From Verrucomicrobiia bacterium (lineage in GTDB: Bacteria; Verrucomicrobiota; Verrucomicrobiia; JADLBR01), in NCBI GenBank assembly GCA_026646655.1, contig JAPKHT010000005.1, positions 23,956 to 87,955 on the forward strand: a DNA stretch of 64,000 nucleotides, written 5' to 3'. Each line of letters begins with the position of its first letter. Within the stretch, counting starts at the first letter, position 1. Below are positions 4,572 through 61,825 of this stretch, piece after piece. The notes under the pieces are model-generated. The model was not told the origin of the DNA. It did not search any database and worked only from the letters and a program-made list of their open reading frames with translations. The position numbers were made by a program, and so were the translations under genes.

Positions 4572-7500
4572 ATGAAGACGGATGGACTCGGATGGAGGTG
4601 GGTGCGCCAGAGAAAGTGTAGCCGAGCGCGTGAGCGCTTGGCCGACGGGGTTGGTGTTGGGCCGGGCCAAACGCTGACGCGTTCGGCTGCGCTGGCCACC
4701 TGGGCGCTCGTGGCGTGGTGCGTGTTTTCGGTTGCCGATGCCGCGCCCGCAAAGGTGCTCTTGTTCTCTGGGCAGAACAACCACGCCTGGGAGAAGACGA
4801 CGCCGGTGCTGAGGGGAATCCTCGAAGATGCGGGGGCCTGTTCGGTGGAGGTGACGGAGGCGCCGCAGGATCTCGATCCGGCGGGGCTGAAGGGCTTCGA
4901 TGTCATCGTCAGCAACTGGAACGCGTGGGGGGCCAAGGGCAAGGGGGCGGCGGTGGCGGATTGGCCGGAGGCGCTGAAGAAGGCGTACGTGGAATTCGTG
5001 GCGTCCGGCGGGGGGCACGTGGCGGTGCACGCGGGCACGTCGTCCTTCGAGGGCTGGGAGGATTACCAGCGGATCTGCGGGGCGACGTGGGGCCTGGGGC
5101 AGACGAGCCATGGCCCGCCGCACGAGTTCGAGGTGCGGGTGGACGACCCATCGCACCCGATCACGCGGGGTTTGGCGGCATTTCGTACGACGGACGAACT
5201 GTGGAATCGCCCCAAGGTGCAGCCGGGATTCCGGGCGATCGCCTCGTCGTTCTCGGAGACGGACCACAAGGGGACGGGGGAATGGGAGCCGACGGCGATC
5301 GTGGGGACCTTTGGGCGGGGCAGGTGCTACGCGCTTCTGCTCGGTCACGATGCGACCGCAATGGGCAACCCGGGATTCAAGGAACTGCTCCGGCGTGGCG
5401 TGGCTTGGGCCGCGGCAGGCAAGGCGGAAGCCGCGGCGGGGAAGGCCGTCCCGGCCTTACGGGACTGGACTCCTGACCAAGGGCTGGCGCCATTCAACGA
5501 GGCGGCCCGGGCGGTGCAGGCCGCCGGCAACGATCCGGCGGGTCGCGCCGAGGTGGCCAAGAAATTGGCGGGGCTATTGGGCGAGCCGGTGCCCGCGGCG
5601 GTGAAGAAGTTCGCCTGCGAGCAGCTGGCGGTCGTGGGAGGGGAGGCGGAGGCGGGGGCGCTCTGCGCGCTGCTGGGTGACGAGGCGCTGGAGACGCCGG
5701 CGAGGGGCGCGCTGGAACGGATTGGTGGACAGAGGGTGGCGGCGCTGCTGCGCGAAGCGTATTCGAGGGCGGAAACACCTGCGCGACGAGCCGGGATCCT
5801 CGGAAGCCTGGCGAAGCTCGGGGACGCGCGGGCGGTGCCTTTGGCGGCCGGGGCGCTGGCGTCGGAGGACGGGGTGCTGCGTGCGGCGGCGATGGTGGCG
5901 CTGGGGCAGATCGGCGGGGAGGCGGCCGCGGGCGCGCTGCTCGGGATCGAGGGGAGCCTGGGCGACGCGGACAAAATGCCGTGGGGCGGCGCTCTGCTGG
6001 CATGCGCCGAGGGGATGGGACCCGCGCAAGGCGGGAGGATTCTGGATCGTCTGGTGAAAGTGGGTCGACCCGCGAGCATCCGTGCCGCGGCGCTCGCGGC
6101 GAAGATCCGGCTGGCGGACCAGGGGGGGTTGGCTCTGGCTGTCCGCGCGCTGCGGGGCGCGGATGAGGCGTTGCGGCGGGGGGCACTCGATGCATTGAGG
6201 GCGGACCGGGGCGCGAGATTGCGGGCATGGCAAGGGGCCATCGCACGAGCGGTGGGCGAGTTTGCCGAGCCGGTGCGCCTGGCGGTGCTGGATGCATATG
6301 TCGCCAATCGCATCCGGGGGGGAGCCCTGCTGGCCGAGGGCTTGGCGAGATCCAAGGATCCCGCCGCTCGCGGTGCGGGTCTGCGCGCGCTTGGCGAGCT
6401 GGGGTCGGAGCCCTATTTCGACATCCTGTTTGATCATCTGGTGGGCGAATCACCGGAAGACCGTGCCGCGGCGACCGACGGATTGGCGGTATTGCGGGCG
6501 GCGTCCACCGACGGGCGACTCATCGCGTTGCTCGAAACGGTTAATCCGACCGCAGCACCCGCGGTGGTCGAAGTGCTGCGGCGCCGGGGCACGACGTCTG
6601 CCGTGCCCGCGCTGTTGACCTTGGCGCGCGGCGGGGATGCCGAGACCGCCAAGGCCGCGGCGCGAGCGGCCGGTGAACTCGGGGGCCCGGCGGCGATCCC
6701 GGGGCTCGCGGATGTCATCTCGAAAGGCGGGCCCGGTGCACAGAGCGCGGCTCAAGTGCTGGCGAAGATCGCCCGGGCGGAACCGGAGGTGGCGAAGGCG
6801 CGGCTGGCGATTGCCATTCCCATGGCGCCGGAATCCGCGCGGGAGACCTTCGGCAAGATACTGGCGCTCGTGGATGGTTCGGCAAAGGGCGGCAGCGCGG
6901 CGGTGCCGGGACTCGGGCGGAATCTGGCGGTGGGCGCCCAGGCCGAAAGCCCGACGGGACTCAAGGCGGACGGTGCCGCCGGCGGGCCGGGCGCCGCCGT
7001 GGATGGCGACCCGGCGACCTATTGGGACGAGCAGAACGGCCAACCGGAGTACCGATTGCGGGTCACGCTGAAAGAGGAGGCGACCGTCTCGAGGTTGCGG
7101 ATCACGGGCTACCGGCACCACGAATTCTCGGCCAGGGATCTCGCGGTGCTGTGCAACGGGCGAGAGGTCAAGAGGGTCGCGGACGCCACGTACGATAACA
7201 ATCAACTGCTATTACAATTTCCAGAAACCCCCTGCAAAGTCGTCGAGCTGCGCATCACGGCCTATTACGGGGGCAGCCCGGCGATCAGGGAACTGGAGAT
7301 CTTTGGCGATGCGGCGCGGAAAGAGGGGGCGAAGGTGCCGGGGGTGCCCTCGGCGGGCGGAGGCCTTTCCTGGGAGAAGGGCGATGATTCCGTGGCGCTG
7401 CTGTCGGCAGGCAAACCGGTGTGGCGGCTCACGCATGGGGCGAAGGAGCCATTCCCCTATTTTGATCCGCTGGGCCTCGTCGGCGGCGGGAATCTGGTGT

Positions 7501-8240
7501 GGAAGAGCCCGCCGGATCACATCCATCATTACGCGCACTGGTTCTCGTGGAAGGTGATCAACGGGGTGAACTACTGGGAATTCGACAAGGCGACGGGCCG
7601 TCCGGTGGGGGTGACGCGGTGCGCGGATGTGAGGCCCGAGACCCGGCCCGACGGTTCGGCGCGGATTGCGATGAGGCTGGCGTATGAGCCGTCCGGGGGA
7701 AAGGCGGTGCTGACCGAGGATAGGATCCTCGACATCTCCGCGCCTGCGGCCGACGGGGGCTACCGGATCGACTGGCGCATGGAATGGACCGCGGCAGATG
7801 AGCCCGTCGTGCTGGATCGGACGCCGCCCCCGGGCGAGCCGGATGGCAAACCGCACGGGGGCTACGCGGGGCTATCGGTGCGATTCTCGAAGGAATTCAC
7901 GGATTGGACCGTCGTCGACAGCGGGGGCGTCCAGGCGATGGACGGTCACCGGAAACGGGCGGCGGCCTCCGAATTTGGCGGGAAGATCGGCGGCAGGGAG
8001 TGCGGGGTCGCGATACTCGATCACCCGGAGAACCCGAACGCGCCGACGCCCTGGTTCTACGTGATCAACCCGGCGGTGCCGTTCGGGTACACGAATCCCG
8101 CCTTCCTGTGCGACTCGCCCAAGCGCATCGAGGCGCGCGGGAAATTGCTGTTGCGTTATCGCGTGATATTGCACGCGGGGCGCTGGGATCCCGGCGCATT
8201 GCGGGCGGCGGTCGCGGCGTACGCGAAGGAGGTGCGATGA
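4572..8240 (+). CDS. Large multidomain secreted protein: ThuA-like (class I glutamine-amidotransferase-like) N-domain, HEAT/PBS-lyase repeats, F5/8-type-C discoidin domain, C-terminal PmoA-like (DUF6807-type) domain
   Basis: 1222-aa ORF with a GGAGGA SD before the ATG at 4572. Domain motifs read directly: KVLLFSGQNNHAWEK...GGGHVAVHAG (ThuA-like), repeated ...ALG.IGGEAAAGALL (HEAT-like), GDPATYWDE...LRITGY (discoidin), HHYAHWFSWKVINGVNYWEF (PmoA-like). The 5' 130 nt contain a full repeat-A copy, so the true start is uncertain. Confidence 0.8.
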   Translation: MKTDGLGWRWVRQRKCSRARERLADGVGVGPGQTLTRSAALATWALVAWCVFSVADAAPAKVLLFSGQNNHAWEKTTPVLRGILEDAGACSVEVTEAPQDLDPAGLKGFDVIVSNWNAWGAKGKGAAVADWPEALKKAYVEFVASGGGHVAVHAGTSSFEGWEDYQRICGATWGLGQTSHGPPHEFEVRVDDPSHPITRGLAAFRTTDELWNRPKVQPGFRAIASSFSETDHKGTGEWEPTAIVGTFGRGRCYALLLGHDATAMGNPGFKELLRRGVAWAAAGKAEAAAGKAVPALRDWTPDQGLAPFNEAARAVQAAGNDPAGRAEVAKKLAGLLGEPVPAAVKKFACEQLAVVGGEAEAGALCALLGDEALETPARGALERIGGQRVAALLREAYSRAETPARRAGILGSLAKLGDARAVPLAAGALASEDGVLRAAAMVALGQIGGEAAAGALLGIEGSLGDADKMPWGGALLACAEGMGPAQGGRILDRLVKVGRPASIRAAALAAKIRLADQGGLALAVRALRGADEALRRGALDALRADRGARLRAWQGAIARAVGEFAEPVRLAVLDAYVANRIRGGALLAEGLARSKDPAARGAGLRALGELGSEPYFDILFDHLVGESPEDRAAATDGLAVLRAASTDGRLIALLETVNPTAAPAVVEVLRRRGTTSAVPALLTLARGGDAETAKAAARAAGELGGPAAIPGLADVISKGGPGAQSAAQVLAKIARAEPEVAKARLAIAIPMAPESARETFGKILALVDGSAKGGSAAVPGLGRNLAVGAQAESPTGLKADGAAGGPGAAVDGDPATYWDEQNGQPEYRLRVTLKEEATVSRLRITGYRHHEFSARDLAVLCNGREVKRVADATYDNNQLLLQFPETPCKVVELRITAYYGGSPAIRELEIFGDAARKEGAKVPGVPSAGGGLSWEKGDDSVALLSAGKPVWRLTHGAKEPFPYFDPLGLVGGGNLVWKSPPDHIHHYAHWFSWKVINGVNYWEFDKATGRPVGVTRCADVRPETRPDGSARIAMRLAYEPSGGKAVLTEDRILDISAPAADGGYRIDWRMEWTAADEPVVLDRTPPPGEPDGKPHGGYAGLSVRFSKEFTDWTVVDSGGVQAMDGHRKRAAASEFGGKIGGRECGVAILDHPENPNAPTPWFYVINPAVPFGYTNPAFLCDSPKRIEARGKLLLRYRVILHAGRWDPGALRAAVAAYAKEVR
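4612..4700 (-). repeat. Dispersed repeat family A, copy 11 (reverse, full length) inside the 5' end of the 4572-8240 ORF
   Basis: gaaagtgtagccgagcgcgtgagcgcttggccgacggggttggtgttgggccgggccaaacgctgacgcgttcggctgcgctggcc. Compare with copy 7. Confidence 0.75.
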
Positions 8241-8295
8241 AAAGCATGGGCGCGGGGATGGTGGCCGAACGCACGGGCGTCTGGCCGGGGAGGCA

Positions 8296-8336
8296 GGTGG
8301 ATCGGCCCAAACGCTTGGCGCGTTCGGCTACGTGCG
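8296..8336 (-). repeat. Partial repeat family A core (second palindrome only)
   Basis: ggcccaaacgcttggcgcgttcggctacgtgcg, between the 1222-aa gene and the preferred Gfo/Idh/MocA start. Confidence 0.6.
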
Positions 8337-8338
8337 AG

Positions 8339-9703
8339 ATGCTCGAATCGCCGGATGGGGGGACTCGCGCCACGCATTCCCGGCGGACGTTTCTCGGGCG
8401 CGGGTTTGCGGCGCTCGGTTTCCCGATGATCGTGCCGGCCCGTGTGCTGGGCGGCCCGGGGGCCCCGTCGAATCGCGTGACCCTGGCGGCGATCGGCTGC
8501 GGCGGGCGCGGGGGTGCGGTGCATCGTGGGATGGCGTCGCTGGAGGGGGTGCAGTACCTCGCGGCGGTGGATCCTTTCAGGGATCGGCGCGAGCGTTTCG
8601 TGCAAACGCTGGATGAGCAGTCCAGGTACGGGGCGGCGGCGAAGCCATGCGCGGATTTTCGGGAGGCGCTGGCGCGGGGAGACATCGATGCGGTGGTGGT
8701 GTGCACCCCGGATCACTGGCATGTGCCGATCGCGATCGCGGCGGCGCGCGCGGGCAAGGACATGTATGTGGAGAAGCCGCTGGGGGTGAGCCTGCGCTGG
8801 GCCAAGGTGTTGCGCGAGGAGGCGGGGCGCCACGGGATCGTTTTCCAGTATGGCACGCAGCAGCGATCGGACCCGAAGTTCCGGTTCGCGTGCGAGCTGG
8901 TGCGCAATGGCCGCATCGGGGAACTGAGGCGCATCGAGGCATGGTGCGCCGACATCTCGAGCCAGTATCAGGCGTTTCACGTCAAAGAGTTCGGGTCGAC
9001 GGAGGAGGTCCCGGTGCCCGAGGGTTTCGACTACGACCTGTGGCTGGGGCCGGCTCCGCCCGCGCCCTTTACGGTGGATCGGTGCACCAGTTACGGGGCG
9101 TGGCACATCTACGACTATGCGCTGGGCTTCATCGCGGGATGGGGCGCGCACCCTCTGGACATCGCGCAGTGGGGCAAGGACGCCGACCACACGGGCCCGG
9201 TGGAGTATTGGGGCACCGGGACCTTGCCCTCAAAGGGCCTGTACGACACGGTCAGCTCGTGGGACGTGATGTGCCGGTATGCCGACGGGATCGAGATGCG
9301 TTTCATGGACCACCGGGCGGCGCGCGAGGTCGTCGCAAAATATCGGACGGCGTCCGACCATGGGACGACGTTTTTCGGCACTCGCGGGTGGGTCAGCGTG
9401 GACCGGAGGGCGGTGCACGCCAGCGATCCGGCCTGGCTGCGGACGAAGTTTGGGCCCGGCGACTCGCGGCTGTACGATAGCCCACGGCACGACCAGAACT
9501 TCATCGATTGCGCGCGGAGTCGTCGGCCGACCATCTGCACGCTGGAGGCCGCGATTCGGTCGGACACGATATCCCATTTGAGCGACATCGCCGTCCGCAC
9601 GGGACGGAAGATCGCCTGGGATCCCGTGAGAGAGGAGGTCGTCGGCGACGGGGCGGCGGCGAGGATGCTGGATCGGCCCGCGCGGGGGCCGTGGGTGGTG
9701 TAG
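8339..9703 (+). CDS. Gfo/Idh/MocA family oxidoreductase, Tat-exported (alternative start 8237)
   Basis: Tat motif SRRTFLGRGFAALGFPMIVPA. Rossmann motif AAIGCGGRGGAVH. The ATG at 8339 gives a 14-aa n-region. The upstream ATG at 8237 has an AAGGAGG SD but would place a repeat-A palindrome inside the CDS. Confidence 0.8.
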   Translation: MLESPDGGTRATHSRRTFLGRGFAALGFPMIVPARVLGGPGAPSNRVTLAAIGCGGRGGAVHRGMASLEGVQYLAAVDPFRDRRERFVQTLDEQSRYGAAAKPCADFREALARGDIDAVVVCTPDHWHVPIAIAAARAGKDMYVEKPLGVSLRWAKVLREEAGRHGIVFQYGTQQRSDPKFRFACELVRNGRIGELRRIEAWCADISSQYQAFHVKEFGSTEEVPVPEGFDYDLWLGPAPPAPFTVDRCTSYGAWHIYDYALGFIAGWGAHPLDIAQWGKDADHTGPVEYWGTGTLPSKGLYDTVSSWDVMCRYADGIEMRFMDHRAAREVVAKYRTASDHGTTFFGTRGWVSVDRRAVHASDPAWLRTKFGPGDSRLYDSPRHDQNFIDCARSRRPTICTLEAAIRSDTISHLSDIAVRTGRKIAWDPVREEVVGDGAAARMLDRPARGPWVV

Positions 9704-9711
9704 GGCAAATG

Positions 9712-9802
9712 AGGCTATCTCGAGAATTGCCGCAGCACTTCCCGTAGGCGAACGCGCGAGCGTTTGGGCGCGAAAGCCTCACGGCTTCGGCTACATTTTG
9801 CC
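9712..9802 (+). repeat. Dispersed repeat family A, copy 1 (forward orientation)
   Basis: ctcgagaattgccgcagcacttcccgtaggcgaacgcgcgagcgtttgggcgcgaaagcctcacggcttcggctacattttgcc. Intergenic, between the Gfo/Idh/MocA gene and hemY. Confidence 0.85.
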
Positions 9803-9811
9803 AAGCCGGGC

Positions 9812-11179
9812 CTATTCTCGAATTAGCTTGGTCGCCAGTCCGACCCCCTGCACGAGGCAGTCGGGCAGCGAGATCCCGCCCCGGTAGTTGCCGGCGAGGT
9901 GGAGGCCGGGGCAATCCGCTTCCGCCTTGTCGCAGGCGGCGAGGAAGCGGTCGTGGTCGGCCTCGTACTGGGGGATGGCCTCGGGCCAGCGGGTCACGCG
10001 GTGGAAGGCGGGAGTGCCCCGGATGCCAAGGAGCGGCGCGATGTCGTAGAGGACGGCCGCGGTGAGATCGCGGTCGTTGAGGTGGAGGGCCTCCGGATCC
10101 TTGCGCCCGCCGATGAAGGCGGTGAGCAGGGCGTGGCCCTCCGGGGCGCGTCCCGGGAATAGCGTGGAGGAGAAGAGGACGCCGAGGGTGCGGATGCCGC
10201 GGGCGCGGGAGATGAGCGCGCCGAAGCCGTCGAGGGGATGGCCGATCTGCTCGCGGGGATATCCGAGGTGGACGACGCACATCGGGGCCTGCGGGATTTC
10301 CAGCAGGGCGCGGGCGGGTTCGGCGAGGGGTGTGGCGAGGCGCGCGGCCTCGCGCGCGGGCGTGGCGATGATGACGTGGTCCGCGTCGAAATTGCCGCGC
10401 CCGGATCGGGCGATGAAGCGGTTGCCCTGCCGGGTGATCTCCTCGATGCGGGTGGAGGGGTGGAACGAGGGGCCGAGGGGCCCCGTGAGGATCCGAAAGA
10501 AATCCGCGAAACCCCCTGGCCACGAGACGAGGCGACTCTTGATCCGCGGGGGGCCACCCTCGCGGCGGCGCGCCCTGGCCTTGCCGACGAAGCCGCGGAC
10601 GATCCCGCCGTATTGGCGTTCCATCTGGAAGATCGCCGGCATCGCGTGGCGCATGACGAGGCGCGAGGGATCGCCGGCATAGATCCCCGACACGAAGGGG
10701 TCGAGGAGCTCGCGGGCGGCCCCCATGCCGATGCGGCGCTCGAAGAACTTCAGGACCGGCTCGTTGTCATCGGTGCCCTTCGGGGCGAAGAGATCGCCGA
10801 GGACGCGCAACTTGCCCCATGGGCTCAGCAGGGGCGTGGCGATGAGGCCGGGCGGCGCGGTCGGTATCGGCAGCAGCCGCCCGCCGCGCACGAGGAAGCG
10901 GCGCTTGGCATCCGGGGCGGCATCGAGCGCCGGGGCCAGCGCGCCATGCTTTTCCATGAATGCGATCACCTCGGGTTTGGACAGGAGCGCGGTATTCGGG
11001 CCCGCCTCGCACAGGAATCCGTCCTCGCGAAAGGTGCGGGCAGAACCGCCGGCGGCGGGATCCTCCGTGACCACCGTGACGTGCCATCCCGCCCCGCGCA
11101 AGGTCAGCGCCGCGCCGAGGCCCGTGGCGCCGGCGCCAATGATGAGGGCGGTGCGGGGATCGGTTCTCCCAGGTGCCAT
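9812..11179 (-). CDS. hemY: Protoporphyrinogen oxidase (FAD-dependent, HemY type)
   Basis: N-terminal FAD dinucleotide-binding motif ALIIGAGATGLGAA. About 455 aa. Lies immediately downstream of ferrochelatase on the same strand. The first ATG, at 11179, is used (the longer ORF starts with a TTG at 11206). Confidence 0.75.
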   Translation of the reverse strand: MAPGRTDPRTALIIGAGATGLGAALTLRGAGWHVTVVTEDPAAGGSARTFREDGFLCEAGPNTALLSKPEVIAFMEKHGALAPALDAAPDAKRRFLVRGGRLLPIPTAPPGLIATPLLSPWGKLRVLGDLFAPKGTDDNEPVLKFFERRIGMGAARELLDPFVSGIYAGDPSRLVMRHAMPAIFQMERQYGGIVRGFVGKARARRREGGPPRIKSRLVSWPGGFADFFRILTGPLGPSFHPSTRIEEITRQGNRFIARSGRGNFDADHVIIATPAREAARLATPLAEPARALLEIPQAPMCVVHLGYPREQIGHPLDGFGALISRARGIRTLGVLFSSTLFPGRAPEGHALLTAFIGGRKDPEALHLNDRDLTAAVLYDIAPLLGIRGTPAFHRVTRWPEAIPQYEADHDRFLAACDKAEADCPGLHLAGNYRGGISLPDCLVQGVGLATKLIRE

Positions 11180-11237
11180 GGGGGGCAATGTAAGGTCAAA
11201 GGGCAAAGGTCAAAAGTCAAAACCACAGGTGATATCT

Positions 11238-11322
11238 GGCTCGAGAATTGCCGCATCGCTTCCCGTAGCCGAACGCGTAAGCGTTTGGCCGCCAAAGCCT
11301 CACGGCTTCGGCTGCACTTTCA
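11238..11322 (+). repeat. Dispersed repeat family A, copy 2 (forward)
   Basis: ctcgagaattgccgcatcgcttcccgtagccgaacgcgtaagcgtttggccgccaaagcctcacggcttcggctgcactttcac. Lies between hemH and hemY and overlaps the hemH 3' end. Confidence 0.85.
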
Positions 11323-12391
11323 CCCCCGGCGGTGCCCCGTCTGCGGGGCATGATGTCTGACCCGAATATGCCTCGACCCTGCGCTGGAGGAACTCGACCC
11401 ATTTTGGGTGCTCGTTGAGGCAGGGGATCAGATCGAAGGACTCGCCGCCGGCGTCGAGGAAGGTCTTCTTTCCCATGACGCCGAGTTCCTCGAGGGTCTC
11501 GAGGCAGTCGGAGACAAAAGCGGGGGAAATGAGCAGAAGGCGGCGGGTGCCGGATTTGGCCAACCGCTCCAACTCGAAATCGGTGTAGGGCCCGAGCCAC
11601 GGGTCCTTGCCCAGGCGCGACTGGAAGGAAACGGAGTATCTCTCTGGTGAGAGGCCCGCCAGTGCGGCGAAAGCGCGGGTGGTGGCAAACACCTGGTGCC
11701 GATAGCAGACCTTGTGGACGGGATGGGGAGTGTCGCAGCAATCGGGGCGCGCGAGGCAGTGCGAACCGGAGGCGTCCGCCTTGCGGCAGTGGCGCTCGGG
11801 GATGCCGTGGTAGGAGAAGAGGAGGTGGTCGTGGGGACGATCGAGCCAGGGGCGTGCGCTCGCGACCAGGGCGGCGATGTAATCCGGGTCGGCGTAGAAA
11901 GGGGGCTGGACGGTCAGCCGGCAACCCGGTGCGGCGCGGCGCAGGACCTCACGCACGCGGACGACGACCGTCTCGTAGCTCGACATGGCATAGTGGGGGT
12001 AGAGGGGTATCAGGAGCAGGTCGTCGACGCCGTCGCCCGCGAGGTTGCGGATGACATCCGGGATCGAGGGATTGCCATAGCGCATCGCCAGCGCGACGGG
12101 GACCCGGACCCGCGCGGCGAGGAGGTCCCGCAATCTCCTGCTGCTCAGCACGAGCGGTGACCCCTCGGGCGTCCATATGGAATGATATGCCTCGGCGGAA
12201 TTGTGCACGCGTTTCGGGATGATGGCCCCGCGGACCAGCAACTGGCGGAGGACCCACGGGATATCGATCACCCGCGGGTCCAGGAGGAATTCGGTCAGGT
12301 AGCGCCGCACGTCGGGCACGGATGGCGAGTCGGGCGAACCGAGGTTCACCAGGAGCACGGCGCGGCGGGCGGGGGTTGGGTCGGCGAGCAT
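11300..12391 (-). CDS. hemH: Ferrochelatase
   Basis: 363 aa. Motifs VLLVNLGSPDSP, LIPLYPHY, SYHGIPE and LLISPAFVSDCLETLEE are typical of ferrochelatase. Confidence 0.9.
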   Translation of the reverse strand: MLADPTPARRAVLLVNLGSPDSPSVPDVRRYLTEFLLDPRVIDIPWVLRQLLVRGAIIPKRVHNSAEAYHSIWTPEGSPLVLSSRRLRDLLAARVRVPVALAMRYGNPSIPDVIRNLAGDGVDDLLLIPLYPHYAMSSYETVVVRVREVLRRAAPGCRLTVQPPFYADPDYIAALVASARPWLDRPHDHLLFSYHGIPERHCRKADASGSHCLARPDCCDTPHPVHKVCYRHQVFATTRAFAALAGLSPERYSVSFQSRLGKDPWLGPYTDFELERLAKSGTRRLLLISPAFVSDCLETLEELGVMGKKTFLDAGGESFDLIPCLNEHPKWVEFLQRRVEAYSGQTSCPADGAPPGVKVQPKP

Positions 12392-12520
12392 GCCTGGATG
12401 CTATCCGGTTTTGGGTGGGCTGCAATGCACCGTCGCCCCTTGCCGGAGGAGGTTGCCGGACGGAGCCCGCCCAACTCCCGACGCCTGGTGGGGGTGTAAT
12501 ACCCGCGACGTGTCGTGGGC

Positions 12521-12949
12521 TCAGCGCGCGGCCACGCGCTCTTGGGCGAGCAGGACCGGGGTCACCCCGAGATCGCGAACATCGGCGAGCGAAGTCGAGA
12601 CCGTCGAGGGCGAATAGCTGACTCGCAGGGAGCGCGCGCCGTTGACCGTGATCAGGATCTTATCCCCCTGCGTGTGCGCCGTGGTCACGGCAAAGCCACG
12701 GGCGCAGAGTTCGCCGGCGATCTCGTTCGCAACGGTCTGGAGCGGCGTGCCTTTCGCGAAATCCCGCAGCACGACATGGGGGTCGCCGATGCCGGGTTCC
12801 GCGATCAGCCGCATCCGGGTCTTTTCGGCGATCGTGCCCTCACCGCCGACCGACCAGACATAGAGACCTATGGACCCCTTGTCAGCCGCAGTCGCCTCAA
12901 GGGCCATGGCGAACAACAAAGGCAACAGGATCAGGCAGTTCCGTCTCAT
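12521..12949 (-). CDS. Hypothetical exported protein
   Basis: ORF with a signal peptide, MRRNCLILLPLLFAMALEATAADKGS. No recognisable domain. Confidence 0.45.
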   Translation of the reverse strand: MRRNCLILLPLLFAMALEATAADKGSIGLYVWSVGGEGTIAEKTRMRLIAEPGIGDPHVVLRDFAKGTPLQTVANEIAGELCARGFAVTTAHTQGDKILITVNGARSLRVSYSPSTVSTSLADVRDLGVTPVLLAQERVAAR

Positions 12950-13118
12950 CGTCACGGGAACGTAACACAAAAGGCACGCGGCTGCAACAATCATCTGTTC
13001 CGGACCGGATGAGAAAAGTCACGGATTTGTCGCGCCGATGTCGTGGTCCCGTCATCTGGAAGCGGCACGTGGGAGGGCGAGATGAGCGACGGTCGAGAAA
13101 CACCCGGGGGTTTGCCGC

Positions 13119-13805
13119 ATGCTGGGACGCATACTGGTGGTGGAAGACGATGAGGATCTGAGGGATCTGCTGGGTTCGACCATCCGGAAGGCCGGGTATC
13201 AGGTGATCACCGCGGACGGAGGACGCGCATGCCTGCGCAAGACAATCGACGAAAAGCCCGACCTGATCCTGCTCGACATCATGCTCCCCGACCTTGCGGG
13301 CACGGACGTGTGCCGTCGCCTGCGCAGCGACGGCGCGACGGCGGCCACGCCGATCATCGTGCTTTCCGCAAAGTCCGAGGAGGCCGACAGGATCCTGGGG
13401 CTTGAGGTGGGGGCCGATGACTACGTCACCAAACCCTTCAGCCCACGGGAACTGGTGGTCCGCATCGGGAAGGTCCTGGAGAGAACGCGCGGCAGGACCA
13501 TGATGTCGGATCATGTGACGGCCGGCGAACTCGTGCTTGATCGAGCGGCATACCTACTGCTCTTCCGGGGTAACGAGGTCCGGTTGACGCGCACGGAGTT
13601 TAAGCTTCTCGGGTTGCTGATGGACCGATGCGGCCGGGTGCAGACGAGGGAGCGGTTGCTGGCGGAGGTCTGGGAGTATGACACATCCATGGATACCCGG
13701 ACCGTTGACACGCACGTCCAGCGCCTGCGGGGTAAACTTGGCGAAGCGGGGAAATACATCGAGACTGTCAGGGGTTTCGGCTATCGGCTGGTGGTGCCGT
13801 CCTGA
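13119..13805 (+). CDS. OmpR-family two-component response regulator (receiver plus winged-helix)
   Basis: 228 aa. Receiver motifs ILVVEDDEDL...DLILLDIMLPDLAGTD...IIVLSAKSEE, and a C-terminal trans_reg_C motif (LTRTEFKLLGLLM...RTVDTHVQRLRGKL). Confidence 0.9.
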   Translation: MLGRILVVEDDEDLRDLLGSTIRKAGYQVITADGGRACLRKTIDEKPDLILLDIMLPDLAGTDVCRRLRSDGATAATPIIVLSAKSEEADRILGLEVGADDYVTKPFSPRELVVRIGKVLERTRGRTMMSDHVTAGELVLDRAAYLLLFRGNEVRLTRTEFKLLGLLMDRCGRVQTRERLLAEVWEYDTSMDTRTVDTHVQRLRGKLGEAGKYIETVRGFGYRLVVPS

Positions 13806-14878: not shown

Positions 14879-14909
14879 CGTCGGGGTCATGCGGCCGCCC
14901 GACCGGCCA

Positions 14910-15062
14910 GCTCGAAAATAGCCGCAGCGCCTCCCGCAACCGAACGCGTAAGCGTTTGGCCGCCAATGCCTGACTCGAAAATTCGTAGCCACGGTCGCCA
15001 GACCGTGGACCCGGGGTTGAGTCGAACGATCTCCGGCAACCGCCGGACCAGATGGGCTACAC
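14910..15062 (+). repeat. Dispersed repeat family A, copy 3: two tandem units (forward), the second divergent
   Basis: First unit: ctcgaaaatagccgcagcgcctcccgcaaccgaacgcgtaagcgtttggccgccaatgcctga. Second unit: ctcgaaaattcgtagccacggtcgccagaccgtggac...gggctacactttggctc. Confidence 0.75.
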
Positions 15063-15190
15063 TTTGGCTCGTGCGGAATAATGGTGGCTGTCGATGGGAC
15101 GATGGCCAAACGGACGCTCGCCGGTTTCATCGGGAACTCACGAACTCAGGAAGGGCTGGGAACGGAATGGCGCTCAGTCAGGTGATGTCT

Positions 15191-15215
15191 GGGAGGGCCC
15201 GCGGCCTCGCGGGCC
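15191..15215 (+). repeat. GC-hairpin repeat family C, copy a (GGGAGGGCCCGCGGCCTCGCGGGCC)
   Basis: Perfect 8-bp GC stem GGCCCGCG/CGCGGGCC flanked by GGGAGG. Intergenic. Confidence 0.7.
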
Positions 15216-48465: not shown

Positions 48466-48540
48466 GGATCAAGAATGTCGCTGATCGCCGGGACGAAAAA
48501 GTGTGGCCCATCTGATCCGGCAGCTGCCGGACCACCGGGG

Positions 48541-48630
48541 GTGAAAGTGTAGCCGATCGCCTCGGGCGATTGGCGGCCAAACGCTCACGCGTTCGGCTAC
48601 GGGACGCGATGCGGCCATTTTCGAGTCAGC
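48541..48630 (-). repeat. Dispersed repeat family A, copy 7 (reverse)
   Basis: gtgaaagtgtagccgatcgcctcgggcgattggcggccaaacgctcacgcgttcggctacgggacgcgatgcggccattttcgagtcagc. Confidence 0.85.
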
Positions 48631-50584: not shown

Positions 50585-52837
50585 TCAGTAATTCACGGCC
50601 GTGACGGCATCGAGGTCGAAGCCGGAGTTGCCCGCCGTCCGGAGCGCGGCACCGGTAAAATTCGTGTGGCGCACCGCGTCGCCGTTGCCGTCGATGATCC
50701 AGTTGTCGCCGGTGGATTGGATCTTGACGAATCGGGCCCACGCGAGGCCGACGGTCGCGAGATCAAAGCTGTCGCCGCCAGACTCGGACGGGTTGGTCGG
50801 GTCGGCATTTGGCAGGACCGGGTTTATCCCCGCGAAGCCGCTCCCGTAGCAGTAGGGGTGCTGCAAGTTCAGGTTGCCCGCGTCGTCGTATCGCGGCGAG
50901 AAATCGATGGGGAATCGTTTCCAGGAGGAACCGTCCTGGCTGACGTAGACCACGGCGGGTTCCATGAATCGGTTGAGGTGATCCCCGCCGATGTAGAAGG
51001 CGTTTTCGAAGACCGTGAAGTCATTGCCGGGGCCATCGACGATCACGTTGTCGGTGAACTCGACGACGATCTCGCCGCCGTAGGGTGCCGAGCCACTTCC
51101 ATTGATGGCGGCCCCCAGCGAGACGACGTCCTTAGATCCATTTGCGTAGCCGAGTCCGTTGGGGGGGCCAAGTACGATGCCGGGCACGCTTGCGGCGTTG
51201 AACCGGTCGGCCCCGGCCAAGGGCGTGAAATAGGCCGCGTCGGCGTGCGGGTCGGCCGCTCCGGCTGCGGCGCGGCCCTTGGTAAAGGGCAGGATAGTCG
51301 CAGAGCCATAGGATGTCGCGTCGAGGGCGCTGTATTCCCCGTCCGGGGTGAAGGCGAAGGCCGCGTAGTGGTAGGTCGTCCCATCGGCGAGCGCCTGATC
51401 AATGGTCGTCGTGCCGACGCCCTGATAGACGATGTCGCCCTCGTCGGGGGTGGCCGGAATGGCGGCGGTGCTGCGCACCACGAGGGTCTCCGCGAACTCG
51501 GGCTCATCGGGATTGTTCCATGTTAGGACCGCCTTGCCCGCGCTGGGGTAGACCCTCAGGTCGGTGACGGGGCCAATGGGCGCCTCGGTGATCTCCAAAT
51601 AGAAATCCCCGTAGGCGATCTGTGGTTCGGGGGCGGTGGCATCCCAGACGGCGACGGAGAGCGGGCCGAAGGAGCCTATGGTTTCGGGGGTACCGGAGAA
51701 GACGCCGTCCGCGAACGTGAGGCCCGGGGGGATTTCGCCGGCGATCAGTTCCCATCGGTAGGGGGTCGTGCCGCCTTCCGCATCGAGTGGTATTTCGGCG
51801 GGTTTGCCCTGTTGGGCGGGATCGAGCTGTTGCGCGGAGACGATGCGTAGCGCCCTCGAGACGACCTTGAGGACGAGATCTTTCGATGCCTGGGTCCCCT
51901 GTGCGTCGGTCACGGTGACCGACAGCGGATAACTCTTGAACTCGCCGGTCGGGTTGCCCGAAATGGCGCCGGCGGAGGATATCGAGACGCCCGGGGGCAG
52001 TTCGCCGCTGACCGACCACTCGTATGTGGGGACGCCACCCGCCGCGGCGAGCGCGATCGCAAGCGGGTTGCCGACGCTGGCGTCGGGGAGGGACTCCGTC
52101 ACGATGCGCAGTTGATCCTCCGGTAGGATGACCAGGAGGTACTCGGCCTCGTCGCTGTTGGAGTCGGCGTCGCTGACCCGGACGCGGAGTGAATCGCTGA
52201 AGAGTTGCAGCGGGGTCCCGTAGAAGAGGCCGCGGGCGGTGTCGAATTGGAGGCCGAGGGGGAGTGTGCCCGAGGTGCTCCACGAATAGGGGGGCGTGCC
52301 CCCCGTGGCGAGGATCTGCGCGTTGAATGCCTTGGAGAGGGTGCCCTCCGGAAGCGATCCGGTCGTGATGAGCAACTGGACGAGCACGTTATCGCCCGCC
52401 GCGCCCACCCCGCTGGCCCGGGACAGGCCGCGATGGCCGCCGGGACCCGGGACCAATTCTGCCGGCAGCCACTTGCCATCTCGCAGCACCATGCCGCTGC
52501 GGCGGATCGAGGCGATGTCTTCGGCGGACGCGGGCGTCCCGCGCTGCGATTCGCAAGGTGCCTCCGCATGGCCGGCGCCATTGCGCCAGTCCTCGTCATC
52601 CCAGGGCGCCTTGTCCCCGGACCTCTTTCCCTTCCACCACGACCGGAGGAAACCGGGGTCGTCATCGGTGCCGATGATGGCACCGTCGAGGGCGAAGCGG
52701 TCGAGCGCGATACCGCCCCCGACAAGGCCGGCCATGGCGAGTGCGATGGCGGTCGTGAGCCCGGCGATGGCGTTCGGCTCCAGCGCCCGGACCGCGGCCA
52801 TCCCACGGCAAAGCCAGCCCAGTATCCCGCGGATCAT
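50585..52837 (-). CDS. Large membrane-anchored surface protein with tandem putative-Ig (He_PIG-type) repeats and a C-terminal domain of unknown function
   Basis: 750 aa: N-terminal TM anchor, about five repeats of the LPxGLxF...GxxxGTP type (for example GTPPYSWSTSGTLPLGLQFDTARGLFYGTP), then a C-terminal beta-rich domain. The stop is 4 nt from the next start. Confidence 0.65.
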   Translation of the reverse strand: MIRGILGWLCRGMAAVRALEPNAIAGLTTAIALAMAGLVGGGIALDRFALDGAIIGTDDDPGFLRSWWKGKRSGDKAPWDDEDWRNGAGHAEAPCESQRGTPASAEDIASIRRSGMVLRDGKWLPAELVPGPGGHRGLSRASGVGAAGDNVLVQLLITTGSLPEGTLSKAFNAQILATGGTPPYSWSTSGTLPLGLQFDTARGLFYGTPLQLFSDSLRVRVSDADSNSDEAEYLLVILPEDQLRIVTESLPDASVGNPLAIALAAAGGVPTYEWSVSGELPPGVSISSAGAISGNPTGEFKSYPLSVTVTDAQGTQASKDLVLKVVSRALRIVSAQQLDPAQQGKPAEIPLDAEGGTTPYRWELIAGEIPPGLTFADGVFSGTPETIGSFGPLSVAVWDATAPEPQIAYGDFYLEITEAPIGPVTDLRVYPSAGKAVLTWNNPDEPEFAETLVVRSTAAIPATPDEGDIVYQGVGTTTIDQALADGTTYHYAAFAFTPDGEYSALDATSYGSATILPFTKGRAAAGAADPHADAAYFTPLAGADRFNAASVPGIVLGPPNGLGYANGSKDVVSLGAAINGSGSAPYGGEIVVEFTDNVIVDGPGNDFTVFENAFYIGGDHLNRFMEPAVVYVSQDGSSWKRFPIDFSPRYDDAGNLNLQHPYCYGSGFAGINPVLPNADPTNPSESGGDSFDLATVGLAWARFVKIQSTGDNWIIDGNGDAVRHTNFTGAALRTAGNSGFDLDAVTAVNY

Positions 52838-54237
52838 GGTTGGATGAGCTCCGCGCGGACCCGAATGAACCGCGCCGTGCCGCCACCGGGGTCGGCGACT
52901 GTCACGCGGACCTTCTGGCCCGCTAGGGATTCGGTAATCTGTCCGGTGCCGGTGGTGGGGGTGCCGGCGGCGCTCCGCGCGATCTCCTGCCAGTCCCCGG
53001 GCTGCAGGGTGCCGGAAACCTCAACGACATAGTCGAGATCCCGATTCATGGGGTCACGGGTAAAGCGGATGCTCAGGCGGCCTCCGGAGACAGTCGGCTC
53101 GATGGCATCATGGGCGTCCGGTCGTCTCGGGTTCCCGGAGAAGGCATACTCCAATCCGTTGGGTTGGGCGTCGCCATCGGGATTTGCGAAGAATCCCGAG
53201 ACGCTGTCGTCAAGTTGTTCCGCCGGAGTGAAGAGGGTGGCGTTCCAGGAGGCACGGGAATTGGGCACCCCGACCGCGATGATCGCGTTGAAAGCCCCGA
53301 AGTCGGTCAGGAGCGCGTAGAGGGTGCCGGCGTCGTACGAGGATGGCTCAAACGGCCCGCTCCCGGGCCTAAACTGCATGGAGCTGACCACCGCAAACCC
53401 GCCCGTGATGGAACCGAAAAGGGATGGGTGACCCGATGTCGTGTCGAAGGCGTAGAGGCTGCCGGAGAAGTCGGGAAAGAAGATATCGGCATCGGAGTCT
53501 GCGGCCAGGTAGCTGGAGCCGGCGAGATTGGTGCCGACATGGACGCCGGCGGATGGCTGGAGCGCCACGCCGAGTGCGATCGCGTTGGAAACCTGGGCCC
53601 GCGTGAAGCGGAAGAGGTTATTCTGGAAACTGGCGGTGGTCTGCGCGACGTAGAGGTCGCCGTTGGTGGCGAAGGCAAGGCCGCCGGAATAGGTGGGCAT
53701 CTCGATGACGCGATTGGTCCCCGTTCCAGAGACCAGAAACACCGCGTTGGAATTGGGATTTCCGGTGAAGAAGATGCGCCCGGCGGCGTCGAGCGCGGAG
53801 GCGTAGTTCTGAAGGAGCAAGTTAGTCGTGAGGCCCGAGCCGTCGAGTCCGATGGACATGACGCGGTTGGTCTCGCTGGTGGCGTCGGGGTACGCACCCG
53901 ACTGTCCGAAGTAGACCCGGCTGCCCGCCGTCTCCACGAAACTGCCGAACGCCGTGTCTGGGAATATGTACAGGGTATTGAACGCATGGCCGATGGGGTC
54001 CCAGCGGACCAGCGATGAGGCCGCGCTCCCATAGCCGCCGCTTCCAAGGATCATGACGATGGAACCATCGTCGGCGACGTCGAAGCCGCCGATGCCGGCG
54101 TTGGTGGCAAAGATGTTCTGGACGGCGTAGCCCGCCGGGGCTGCGAAGGCCTGGGCGCGGGCCGCCTGCGGCGCGAGGGCGCCCATGGCGAGGGTCATTG
54201 CTGCCAGTCCGAATCCGCGGGCGGGAAAGCCATTCAT
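52834..54237 (-). CDS. Secreted beta-propeller-like protein (possible BtuG-like B12-capture protein)
   Basis: Signal peptide MNGFPARGFGLAAMTLAMGALAPQAARAQA, a perfect GGAGGA SD, and blade-like repeats (DGSIVMILGSGGYG..., NGDLYVAQTT...). ATGA-coupled to the next gene. The BtuG analogy is inference only. Confidence 0.55.
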   Translation of the reverse strand: MNGFPARGFGLAAMTLAMGALAPQAARAQAFAAPAGYAVQNIFATNAGIGGFDVADDGSIVMILGSGGYGSAASSLVRWDPIGHAFNTLYIFPDTAFGSFVETAGSRVYFGQSGAYPDATSETNRVMSIGLDGSGLTTNLLLQNYASALDAAGRIFFTGNPNSNAVFLVSGTGTNRVIEMPTYSGGLAFATNGDLYVAQTTASFQNNLFRFTRAQVSNAIALGVALQPSAGVHVGTNLAGSSYLAADSDADIFFPDFSGSLYAFDTTSGHPSLFGSITGGFAVVSSMQFRPGSGPFEPSSYDAGTLYALLTDFGAFNAIIAVGVPNSRASWNATLFTPAEQLDDSVSGFFANPDGDAQPNGLEYAFSGNPRRPDAHDAIEPTVSGGRLSIRFTRDPMNRDLDYVVEVSGTLQPGDWQEIARSAAGTPTTGTGQITESLAGQKVRVTVADPGGGTARFIRVRAELIQP

Positions 54238-54272: not shown

Positions 54273-54515
54273 GGCAGTGCGCCCGATCCCGCGGTCCTCA
54301 TTCTTCATTGTGGCGATGAAGTTTTATGCGCCCACCGCACCCGCGGCGGGCGAATGAGAGGGAGCGGCGCAGATATTCGGACTTCGGGCCTCGAACCTCG
54401 CTCCCGCCTTCACCGCCGGACTTGGACCGGAGACTGGCATCTTGGGAGTCTGTAACCCGTTACCGTAGCGCAACTGTTCCCGATTCTCACGGGATTCCCT
54501 GGAGCCGCACCCATC
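54250..54515 (-). promoter_or_regulatory. Cobalamin (AdoCbl) riboswitch with SD-sequestering expression platform
   Basis: The minus-strand RNA reads GGGUGCGGCUCCAGGGAAUCCCGUGAGAAUCGGGAACAGUUGCGCUACGGUAAC...GCACUGCCCGGCCUCCAGG...CUGGAGGAUUCACAUG. It matches the Rfam RF00174 core (GGUGC..AGGGAA..GGUGnAAnUCC..ACnGUAA) and a B12-box-like GCACUGCC. The anti-SD CCUCCAGG pairs with the SD CUGGAGG of the downstream gene. Confidence 0.55.
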
Positions 54516-54660
54516 TTGTCACCCGGTTCCCCGCATCGCGTGCCGGGGCCGGGCCGGATCTAGCAAAGAACCGGATCCAGCCTGATCGCGCGGGGGCGGG
54601 GAGTCAAGGGGAGATTCGGGACCGCGTGCCGAGGCGAGGGGGCGTCGGCCCCAGGAATTG

Positions 54661-57995: not shown

Positions 57996-59195
57996 TCAAA
58001 AGCAAAAAGTCGAGATCCCCGCCACCGCGGCGATCAGCAGCGCATAGGTGATCGGAAACGCCCACCGGCAGCGGTGATCGATGCGGTGGCCGCGCGCCGA
58101 CTCGCCACGCTTTTCGCAGGCGCCGACCCAGAGGTTGACCGCGACGGTGGCGCACATCAACAGGAAACTGACGTTGAGGAAGCCGTGGATGAATGTCACG
58201 TACGCGATATCCGGGAGGATGCCGCCGATGACCATCTGGTAGGCGACGACCGTCAGGATGCCGACGAAGGACACGCTGACGCGGTCTCCGGCGGCGGACC
58301 GGTCCATCCAGAAGACCGACCAGGAGAGCATGACGATCACCACCAGCGGCAGCATGATCAGTCGCACCACGAAGAACGACTGCCTGCGCACATCGATCGC
58401 GAGGACGAATGCGGAGGACGCGCCCTCGGTGCCGGCGTAGGGGGCCTCGAGTTTTCGTGTCGACGAGGTAACGTCGCGGAGATCCCACTGGGGAACGCGG
58501 AGTTGCGGCGGGGGCTGCTCCCGGTCATCCTTTGCCACCTCGAGCGCCACGTCGCCCGACCCGAAACCGAGGACCTCGAAGACCGCCTCGAGCCGCTGGC
58601 GATCGAACGGATAGCGGCGCAGGTTGAGGTCCGACTTGGCGACGGCGTTAAATGTCTCTATCTGGGTGCACGTCCCATCCGGGCGGACGCGCAGCAGGAT
58701 CGCGTCCCGGTCGCACGTGCCGGAAACATTGGCGAGCACCACCTGGGGATACCAGGAGGGTGAGATCTCATCGCACTGATACGAGCCCTGATAGATTTTT
58801 TCGGCGACGCCCTCTTTGGCGGGGTCGAAGGCCTGCCGCGGGTCCTTCCAGACAAGTGTCAGGACGCCGGTGAACTCGAAGGTCTCCGCCTCGTCGTCGA
58901 TCCCGTTGATTTCCCAAAGGTGGAACGAGGCGCGGACGACCACAGGACGGTCGCCAGGAGGCGGCGTCAGCGCGCCGGGTGGGACGGATTGTGCCGGCGC
59001 GGCGCAGGGCGCCGCGATCACCGATGCCGCGACGAGCGACAGGGTCGGCTTGAAAAATTCCGTGGCCGAACGCGCCAGGCGTTTGGCGCGAGTCACCAGC
59101 GCCGTCGGCCAAACGCTTGCGCGTTCGGCTACATTTTCCCGGCGCGCCGCGTCCGGCGCGAGGCCCGGCCCACGCTGTTCAGACACCCGGGCCAT
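57996..59195 (-). CDS. Pentameric ligand-gated ion channel (Cys-loop receptor family, prokaryotic pLGIC); start uncertain (ATG 59195 or GTG 59096)
   Basis: Extracellular ligand-binding-domain motifs (PVVVRASFHLWEINGIDDEAETFEFTGVLTLVWKDPR) followed by four TM helices (M1: FFVVRLIMLPLVVIVMLSWSVFWM). The N-terminal about 45 codons are encoded by repeat-A copy 8. Confidence 0.75.
   Translation of the reverse strand: MARVSEQRGPGLAPDAARRENVAERASVWPTALVTRAKRLARSATEFFKPTLSLVAASVIAAPCAAPAQSVPPGALTPPPGDRPVVVRASFHLWEINGIDDEAETFEFTGVLTLVWKDPRQAFDPAKEGVAEKIYQGSYQCDEISPSWYPQVVLANVSGTCDRDAILLRVRPDGTCTQIETFNAVAKSDLNLRRYPFDRQRLEAVFEVLGFGSGDVALEVAKDDREQPPPQLRVPQWDLRDVTSSTRKLEAPYAGTEGASSAFVLAIDVRRQSFFVVRLIMLPLVVIVMLSWSVFWMDRSAAGDRVSVSFVGILTVVAYQMVIGGILPDIAYVTFIHGFLNVSFLLMCATVAVNLWVGACEKRGESARGHRIDHRCRWAFPITYALLIAAVAGISTFCF
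59052..59140 (+). repeat. Dispersed repeat family A, copy 8 (forward, two palindrome cores)
   Basis: gaaaaattccgtggccgaacgcgccaggcgtttggcgcgagtcaccagcgccgtcggccaaacgcttgcgcgttcggctacattttccc. Lies inside the 5' end of the pLGIC ORF. Confidence 0.8.
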
Positions 59196-61668: not shown

Positions 61669-61734
61669 GTGTGGCTTCCGTTCGGGGGTTGCGTTGGTAG
61701 GTTCAGGAATTTGTTGTTGTGTGAGGGGCAGCCA

Positions 61735-61825
61735 CAAGCGGGAAAGAGTCTAGCCGATCGCCCCAGGCGATGGGCCGATGGTCTTGGTGGCGCGGGCCAA
61801 ACGCTGGCGCGTTCGGCTACAAATG
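61735..61825 (-). repeat. Dispersed repeat family A, copy 9 (reverse, 3' arm diverged)
   Basis: gagtctagccgatcgccccaggcgatgggccgatggtcttggtggcgcgggccaaacgctggcgcgttcggctacaaatgctcgc. Confidence 0.75.

Follow-up and report, generated by a model that had tools for sequence, protein, structure and literature searches.

GTAG-tagged REP hairpins in an uncultured Verrucomicrobiae bacterium and their probable RAYT partner

A short imperfect hairpin recurs across the window analyzed here, a 64,000-nucleotide stretch from an uncultured Verrucomicrobiae bacterium (GenBank assembly GCA_026646655.1, contig JAPKHT010000005.1, positions 23,956 to 87,955 of the forward strand). Judging from sequence comparison, these repeats very probably constitute a family of GTAG-tagged repetitive extragenic palindromic (REP) sequences, arranged in doublets resembling bacterial interspersed mosaic elements (BIMEs) and REP doublets forming hairpins (REPINs), and served by a REP-associated tyrosine transposase (RAYT). 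A REP/BIME-like nature had been proposed in a first-pass annotation of the same DNA, and it is supported by the GTAG tag on an imperfect hairpin, the inverted pairing of the units, their intergenic placement, and a RAYT homologue flanked by the identical hairpin in two related genomes (loci L003 and L043).

Repeat unit and copy number

Our analysis revealed that the repeating unit is a hairpin of about 25 nt, GTAGCC-GA-(3-5 nt)-loop-(3-5 nt)-TT-GGC, hereafter family A, rather than the block of about 85 nt described in the first-pass annotation; the full 85-nt consensus does occur, at five sites, and the hairpin occurs in 21 copies. A covariance model of the single hairpin, built from an alignment of 21 units and run on the window with filters off, returned those same 21 units at 11 sites (E-values 9e-11 to 6e-6 for the 64-kb window), followed by a next-best match at an E-value of 0.15, and this gap indicates that the family-A catalogue of the window is complete. 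A 32-nt core of the earlier consensus, allowing up to 3 mismatches, matched 5 times in the window and 0 times in 100 shuffles, and the pattern GTAGCCGA-N12-TTGGC, allowing up to 1 mismatch, matched 12 times against 0.14 expected. The copy number therefore lies well above the background of 0 to 0.14 matches expected from shuffles, and reading all 13 places listed earlier, together with the shuffle tests, confirmed related sequence at every one, far beyond chance. A repeat finder likewise recovered family A in both orientations (families D1, D3-D5, and D8; pairs I1-I9). The resulting density, about one unit per 3 kb (21 units in 64 kb), lies within published values for genomes rich in REPs (Di Nocera, De Gregorio & Rocco 2013, PMC3733652). 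Its description as unusually high was overstated; Opitutus terrae, from the same phylum, is described as highly enriched in GTAG REPs (PMC3733652). An Rfam scan of the window assigned no family to the repeats at gathering score, its sole match being a cobalamin riboswitch, and a scan of the window for tRNA genes found none.

Hairpin anatomy and covariation

In the 21-unit alignment, 95.8% of the stem cells were paired, a proportion that fell to 22-44% once the partner columns were slid against each other. Compensatory double changes were found at three of the nine pairs, namely the three inner ones (13 cells, 0 unpaired), and generated the inner-stem types AACGC/GCGTT, AAGCC/GGCTT, ATCGCC/GGCGAT, AGCGC/GCGCT, and AGGCC/GGCCT. 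The imperfect hairpins of about 9 bp noted earlier were confirmed by computed folding as stems of 9 pairs (10 in the ATCGCC variant) closed by loops of 4-5 nt. The 5' head was an exact GTAG in 12 of the 21 units, GCAG, GTGG, or CTAG in 8, and GCAA in 1. The fourth stem pair was a G·U(T) wobble in 19 of the 21 units and always sat on the unit's own GTAG strand, leaving an A·C mismatch on the opposite strand, so the family-A hairpin folds well on one strand only. The exchange of G-U and A-C between the two hairpins of a pair, reported previously, is real and arises because the units are inverted, each carrying the wobble on its own GTAG strand; the two palindromes are accordingly inverted to each other and not in tandem, as had been stated.

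Such inverted pairs, with the GTAG ends outside and spacers of either 2 nt or 15-23 nt, were present at 10 of the 11 sites and are HH dimers in the nomenclature of Di Nocera et al. (PMC3733652). Two main architectures were distinguished, and one pair fits neither. The first is the composite of about 85 nt, consisting of a 25-nt leader followed by two hairpins with unlike inner stems placed 2 nt apart, in the order leader CTCGARAAT-NGCCGCANCGCNTCCC, unit CCC-GTAGCCGAACGC, 2 nt, and inverted unit GAAART-GTAGCCGA(AGCC/TCGCC/GGCC). In folding, these composites mostly gave two hairpins or mixed structures (z -1.3 to -2.3 against shuffles). The second comprises spaced near-homodimers without the leader (starting at 4612, 8255, 59056, and 61744; spacers of 15-23 nt), each of which folded into a single long hairpin (-21.5 to -30.4 kcal/mol, z -2.2 to -5.1). 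The remaining pair, at 42056, is tight and lacks the leader, and two adjacent hairpins form there (z -4.9). The mini-ORFs (open reading frames) mentioned in the first-pass annotation are a by-product of the composite, the peptide AEAVRLWRPNAYAFGYGKRCGNSR being its reverse-strand translation, as read directly from the sequence.

A RAYT homologue flanked by the same hairpin

The link between family A and a transposase comes from other Verrucomicrobiota loci. In L003, from an Oleiharenicola metagenome-assembled genome (MAG), four copies of GTAGCCGAACGCGTGAGCGTTTGG(C), the hairpin of the window, surround a minus-strand ORF at 97-600. This ORF carries a candidate HUH motif (PDHLHL) and a candidate catalytic tyrosine (YILDNP, within YILDNPVRAGL), and it matched the NCBIfam model NF047646 REP_Tyr_transpos with an E-value of 7.6e-14 over positions 14-146 of 146. 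It had 43 homologues in the protein collection, several of which are named RayT by the Joint Genome Institute (JGI). A profile of 19 homologues, in whose alignment PDHLH and Y-x-x-x-N-P were (nearly) invariant, matched Escherichia coli TnpAREP (PDB 4ER8) with an E-value of 2e-11 and ISDra2 TnpA with an E-value of 2e-3, and hhalign with E. coli RayT (sequence from NC_000913) gave a probability of 97.5% with the HUH and tyrosine motifs in register. By these sequence criteria, the L003/L043 protein qualifies as a predicted RAYT with HUH and catalytic tyrosine motifs, closer to TnpAREP than to IS200 TnpA.

GTAGC-headed hairpins were present at the gene flanks in the loci of all eight homologues examined, as follows.

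L003: reference RAYT, with the window's hairpin in four copies.
L043: homologue 65% identical to that of L003, with tight pairs that join the window's hairpin to a second stem type (GTAGCCGCGCCGGTGACGGCGTGG).
L053: homologue P0005, with a compensatory variant of the window's hairpin, GTAGCCGAACCTGTAAAGGTTTGGC.
L041, L042, L044, L045, and L049: more distant homologues, with GTAGC-headed hairpins carrying other stems.

The architecture at the flanks of L043 matches that of the window's composite. A 179-aa gene beside the RAYT was common to L003, L043, and L044, and PPK2 lay on its other side in L043 and L044; this conserved neighborhood is the pattern expected of a vertically inherited, single-copy RAYT. 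As a separate observation on these loci, the RAYT stop codon is the TAG of a flanking GTAG REP in L053 (755-760) and L049 (2543-2546). A second, different RAYT-like ORF (MPNHVHAIL ... YIALNPVKARL) was noticed in L014 (about 1990-2660, plus strand) of the CAZYWZ01 genome, with a repeat translating as TRTLLSAIHGRTGVSALR on both sides, which suggests several RAYT-REP systems per genome.

Sites in the window and their genomic context

The gene map was obtained with a codon-position G+C filter, and flanking genes were assigned by Pfam scans. The 11 family-A sites, in which the full composites are sites 3, 4, and 8 on the plus strand and sites 6 and 9 on the minus strand, are listed together with two related features; strands of units are given in brackets.

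Site 1, 4612-4696: inverted pair, units 4612-4645 (+) and 4663-4696 (-), spacer about 23 nt, no leader; unit E-values 2e-10 and 2e-8; single long hairpin, -29.6 kcal/mol, z -5.1; neighbors are a xylose-isomerase-like gene (stop 4565) and a ThuA/DUF6807 gene.
Site 2, 8255-8337: inverted pair, units 8255-8288 (+) and 8303-8337 (-), spacer about 15 nt, z -2.4; begins 15 nt past the stop at 8240; a GFO/IDH/MocA oxidoreductase gene, with its ATG at 8339, follows after 1 nt.
Site 3, 9719-9800, plus strand: full composite, leader CTCGAGAATTGCCGCAGCACTTCCC, units 9738-9771 (+) and 9767-9800 (-); nhmmer E-value 2e-26; fills the gap between convergent genes (stops 9703 and 9812); repeat family D1.
Site 4, 11240-11321, plus strand: full composite, units 11259-11292 (+) and 11288-11321 (-); E-value 8e-28; between ferrochelatase and amine-oxidase genes, both on the minus strand.
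Site 5, 14911-14963, plus strand: leader plus one unit, 14930-14963 (+), a truncated composite; E-value 5e-15; downstream of a Sel1-repeat gene.
Site 6, 30920-31000 (composite from 30917), minus strand: full composite, units 30920-30953 (+) and 30949-30982 (-), leader 30977-31000; E-value 5e-25; flanked by TPR (stop 30871) and FeoA genes.
Site 7, 42056-42115: leaderless tight pair, units 42056-42089 (+) and 42082-42115 (-); convergent neighbors, GH75-like (stop 41908) and gatB (stop 42114).
Site 8, 45466-45548, plus strand: full composite, leader 45466-45490, units 45485-45518 (+) and 45514-45548 (-); E-value 6e-26; upstream of gatA (minus strand).
Site 9, 48543-48628 (composite from 48541), minus strand: full composite, units 48543-48577 (+) and 48573-48606 (-), leader to 48628; E-value 4e-26; minus-strand genes on both sides (an ABC-F ATPase with its start at 48465 and an ORF with its stop at 48626).
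Site 10, 59056-59138: inverted pair, units 59056-59090 (+) and 59105-59138 (-), spacer about 17 nt; folds into a single long hairpin, -30.4 kcal/mol, z -5.1; minus-strand genes on both sides, a ligand-gated-channel homologue and a sulfatase; 94.5% identity over 73 nt with a copy in L036.
Site 11, 61744-61826: inverted pair, units 61744-61778 (+) and 61793-61826 (-), spacer about 17 nt, z -2.2; between a sulfatase start (61737) and a DUF2950 stop (61875).
Remnant, 31757-31790, plus strand: leader-like sequence (GCTCGAAAATAG...), no family-A hairpin (no match to the unit model).
Other-family REP, 50529-50566, minus strand: leader TGACTCGAAAAT and hairpin GTGGCC-ACGTTC-GCCA-GACCGT.

All 11 sites lie in short intergenic gaps and in both orientations, in agreement with the earlier statement that copies stand nearly always between genes. 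Two sites occupy gaps between convergent genes (9703/9812 and 41908/42114), and the others lie between same-strand neighbors or downstream of a gene. The tandem pair reported at 14910 does consist of two head-to-tail hairpins, of which the second (14971-15008) belongs to another family. Similarly, the two places described as fragments, at 31756 and 50521, contain the CTCGAAAAT leader and lack the family-A hairpin; the hairpin at the latter belongs to a different, GTAGCC/GTGGCC-headed family, shares only its leader and head with family A, and is 92% complementary to 14971-15008 (pair I11).

At two sites the repeats meet coding sequence. The ferrochelatase stop codon is supplied by the loop of the second unit at site 4: on the minus strand (11300-11350), the ferrochelatase ORF passes a small hairpin at 11333-11350 and ends in the REP loop, and its C-terminus is about 17 codons longer than that of its ortholog in L051. 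Site 1 probably overlaps the 5' end of the ThuA/DUF6807 gene, as only one open frame leads into that gene (4602-4710) and the pair falls within it; the start is likely TTG 4638 or GTG 4602, and with either start the right-hand REP would encode the charged N-region of a signal peptide (…GQTLTRSAA…). CRISPR arrays and integron attC sites were also considered as candidates and dropped in view of the irregular spacing, inverted units, housekeeping neighbors, and absence of any Cas or integrase domain in the Pfam scans of the flanking genes.

Distribution and turnover among relatives

When one genome per species was scanned for the exact pattern, at least 37 stretches contained the hairpin, all of them from six Verrucomicrobiota MAGs and mostly from the Oleiharenicola MAG, where it forms inverted pairs with spacers of 10-25 nt. 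Among the matches listed, the exact hairpin occurred in Verrucomicrobiota genomes only, and a scan of viral contigs yielded no copy of it. Comparison of the window with the loci of the six genomes by blastn returned REP-sized matches only. The DnaB encoded in the window is identical to one from GCA_020847615.1 (MAG: Verrucomicrobiae bacterium), and the RAYT homologues traced to their assemblies (P0008, P0033, P0002-P0005, and P0029) all belonged to others. The exact 5' leader pattern had no match in these other loci; a shorter form, CTCGAAAAT-TCCC-GTAGCC, is present in the CAZYWZ01 genome.

An orthologous locus, L051, was recovered by scanning metagenome contigs with the amine-oxidase gene (9812-11206); it showed 83% amino-acid identity and synteny on both sides. 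At site 4, the whole composite and the small hairpin at 11333-11350 are both missing from L051, where the ferrochelatase ORF stops earlier and the alignment picks up directly after the CTCGAG end of the leader. At site 3, different GTAG-headed REPs lie between the same conserved flanks. These differences indicate that the sites are polymorphic among relatives and that the leader belongs to the element.

Proposed mechanism and alternative explanations

Homology with E. coli TnpAREP and the IS200/IS605 family suggests the following mechanism: a RAYT (HUH/Y1) present as a single copy elsewhere in the genome would bind the folded hairpin together with its GTAG on single-stranded DNA, cleave, and rejoin nearby, so that doublets could spread or be removed without target-site duplication. 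In short intergenic gaps, the inserted hairpins probably have a second, passive role as structures at mRNA 3' ends. Both the stem irregularity and the GTAG would be needed, with cleavage at a CT dinucleotide read by A3/G4 of the GTAG; speculatively, such a cleavage site could be the CT with which the CTCGARAAT leader begins. A more specific version, which we regard as possible but doubtful, holds that one RAYT lineage of the Planctomycetes-Verrucomicrobia-Chlamydiae (PVC) type serves many hairpin families, that the transposing unit is the asymmetric 85-nt composite, and that the leader CT is where it is cut. What the families share would then be limited to the GTAGCC head, the five outer stem pairs including the G·T wobble, and, in some cases, a (TGA)CTCGAAAAT leader, and the inner stem would be free to drift by compensatory change. 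If this were true, the hairpins would form a naturally occurring set of covarying sequences for studying the recognition code of a non-proteobacterial RAYT.

Several observations weigh against a RAYT-served REP family. In the 64-kb window, tblastn gave no match to E. coli RayT or to any of six Verrucomicrobial RAYTs, and the PPK2 and 179-aa genes that neighbor the RAYT elsewhere were also absent from the window by tblastn. The L003 protein scored 51.8 bits with NF047646, for which the equivalog cut-off is 80, and 14.2 bits with Pfam Y1_Tnp, whose curated cut-off is 23. The tight pairs with unlike stems form no long REPIN hairpin and fold weakly better than shuffles. Finally, mobility is deduced from one presence/absence difference and one site with other occupants, and the absence of the composite from L051 at site 4, a single case compatible with either insertion or deletion, could reflect a deletion.

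Among the competing explanations, it is improbable that the hairpins are mainly host-serving cis elements under selection, such as bidirectional terminators, 3'-end stabilizers, or protein-binding sites, with only a historical link to a transposase. Every copy does lie in a short gap, often just past a stop codon, two sites lie between convergent genes, ATTTTC follows many of the outer GGCTAC ends, and E. coli REPs are known to affect mRNA decay and termination (PMC3733652). However, a consensus scan for intrinsic terminators flagged no unit in 4000-16000, the tails being at most ATTTTC and thus too short, and, relative to transcription, the composites at sites 4, 6, and 8 point one way and the one at site 9 the other. 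Orthologous gaps without a REP or with different REPs also speak against selected host elements, which would leave the GTAG tag and the RAYT flanking unexplained. As an addition, a cis effect of this kind is compatible with the REP-RAYT explanation.

A further alternative is that the repeats are palindrome-associated elements that arose from a true IS200/IS605 insertion sequence and are moved by its TnpA rather than by a domesticated RAYT; this appears less probable still. The two types of system share their chemistry and hairpin-plus-guide logic, namely recognition of a single-strand hairpin by a Y1 HUH enzyme without target duplication, and the associated protein weakly matches ISDra2 TnpA (E-value 0.002) and Pfam Y1_Tnp. 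Nevertheless, the protein is far closer to TnpAREP (2e-11 versus 2e-3) and to NCBIfam REP_Tyr_transpos and groups with RAYTs, its gene occupies a conserved chromosomal neighborhood in three genomes instead of behaving as a multicopy insertion sequence (IS), no tnpB lies beside it among the called genes, and several REPs stand on both flanks in place of distinct left and right ends.

Miniature inverted-repeat transposable elements (MITEs) left by a DDE-type IS, with terminal inverted repeats and target-site duplications, are very unlikely. The pairs do resemble two inverted repeats around a short spacer and are short, non-coding, and dispersed, and the first-pass annotation had offered this alternative alongside REP/BIME. 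Yet flanking direct repeats of at least 5 nt occurred at 2 of 10 sites compared with 37% of random positions, single units and head-to-tail clusters occur, each supposed terminal repeat is itself a hairpin with compensatory changes, and no matching IS was seen. The weakest candidates, conserved leaders or terminators of paralogous genes and chance GC-rich palindromes, can be set aside: only the high G+C content (62-69% in the window), which favors hairpins, speaks for them, the shuffle expectation given above speaks against chance, and the flanking genes are unrelated, which removes the paralog reading (xylose-isomerase-like, ThuA/DUF6807, GFO/IDH/MocA oxidoreductase, amine oxidase, ferrochelatase, Sel1, TPR, FeoA, GH75-like, GatB, GatA, ABC-F ATPase, ligand-gated channel homologue, sulfatase, and DUF2950).

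Comparison with known systems

Prokaryotic REPs have been sorted into GTAG- and CGTC-tagged superfamilies, and the closest comparison is with O. terrae, from the same phylum (PMC3733652). Its REPs share with those of the window a 6-9 bp stem tagged at one end with GTAG (sometimes GTGG), the coexistence of several families per genome (GTAG-17 to -20 in O. terrae), HH dimers with the GTAG outside and 1-2 bp between the units, heterodimers of unlike stems, clusters, and intragenic REPs that extend into ORF ends with the TAG of GTAG as stop codon (PMC3733652). The stem sequence differs from that of family A: GTAG-17, when intragenic, encodes VAGVADPGPG (PMC3733652), whereas family A would encode PNAYAFGY or SRTRKRLA. 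Neither GTAGCCGAA nor GCCGAACGC occurs in the supplementary files of that paper, and the 25-nt CTCGARAAT...TCCC leader is not described for O. terrae in the part of it used here. The RAYT lineage is of the PVC type and resembles Rhodopirellula baltica RB11751 in the alignment of PMC3733652. The GTAG REP/BIME/REPIN class was thus known already, and what is new, relative to the O. terrae families in the cited part of that work, is the stem sequence and the 25-nt leader.

In E. coli, GTAG and the stem mismatch are required for binding and cleavage by TnpAREP (Messing et al. 2012, PMC3479197). The E. coli REP/BIME system resembles the present one in its 5' GTAG at the hairpin foot and in a stem whose irregularity restricts substrate activity to one strand. 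In both, REPs of two types alternate, inverted to each other, and REPs stand on either side of the transposase gene. The E. coli system differs in its unrelated stem and in having an A/C bulge where a G·T wobble is found here (PMC3479197). The L003-type protein is about 17% identical to E. coli TnpAREP, in an alignment without the C-terminal tail region. In the REPIN-RAYT systems of Pseudomonas, too, inverted doublets are the usual form, spaced doublets fold into a single long hairpin, the RAYT gene occupies a conserved locus with the repeats at its flanks, and relatives differ in the presence or absence of copies (Bertels & Rainey 2011, PMC3116915). In contrast to Pseudomonas REPINs, tight heterodimers with a 2-nt spacer and unlike inner stems make up about half of the present doublets, and these form two hairpins instead of one.

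For annotation, these hairpins matter in that they create spurious small ORFs, break metagenome assemblies, and lengthen or shorten real ORFs, as with the ferrochelatase C-terminus at site 4 and the probable signal peptide at site 1. To our knowledge, few REP-RAYT systems have been looked at in uncultured Verrucomicrobiota, and the present case adds a well-resolved REP-RAYT pairing from this group. The finding leaves the general picture of REPs unchanged; the natural stem-swapped heterodimers show which parts are conserved (GTAG, outer stem, wobble) and which are free to vary (inner stem, loop).

Other hairpins and features of the window

Hairpins of further types were noted in the same window. 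A solitary REP of another stem type, GTAGCCGCGCCGGTGACGGCGCGG, lies at 2075-2100 (plus strand), where the TAG at 2076-2078 is the stop of ORF 1128-2078; the GTAGCCGCGCCGGTGACGGCGCGG-type hairpin is the partner REP at the RAYT flanks in L043. A further GT(A/G)GCC-headed family (D7), …TCCGGC-NGCT-GCCGGA…GGGCTACAATTT, is found at 75-108, 15032-15065, 30165-30198, and 48516-48549, and its copies often adjoin family A (sites 5, 8, and 9), as does the other-family REP at 14971-15008 that follows site 5 head-to-tail, forming REP clusters. The sequence GTAGCTGCCGACGTAAGGAGGCAG at 26021-26045 resembles the REP flanking RAYT homologue P0008 in L041.

A hairpin without GTAG, GGGAGG-GCCCGCG-GCCT-CGCGGGC, occurs at 15196-15215, 28188-28207, 29475-29494, and 31012-31031 (4 copies against 0.05 expected), and other GC-rich repeats without GTAG, GGAGGGACGCCGGCCCCGGCGTCCG and GGAGTGCGGTGCGTCCTCGCACCGC, are listed at 28147-28181/29406-29440 and 9-42/3533-3566. 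These GC-rich hairpin repeats lacking the GTAG head may represent a second REP system. Short repeats, TAACCACGGATGRANACGGATGG (D9), stand right after stop codons at 4563-4605, 25980-26012, and 26052-26084.

At the level of the whole window, GC skew is positive throughout (0.08-0.22), and the main coding strand flips from plus to minus near 42 kb. The cobalamin riboswitch (Rfam RF00174, 45.5 bits) lies at 54349-54568 on the minus strand, upstream of the minus-strand ORF 52834-54237, and the gene at 57996-59042 (minus strand) next to site 10 encodes a bacterial homologue of pentameric ligand-gated ion channels (Neur_chan_LBD and Neur_chan_memb).

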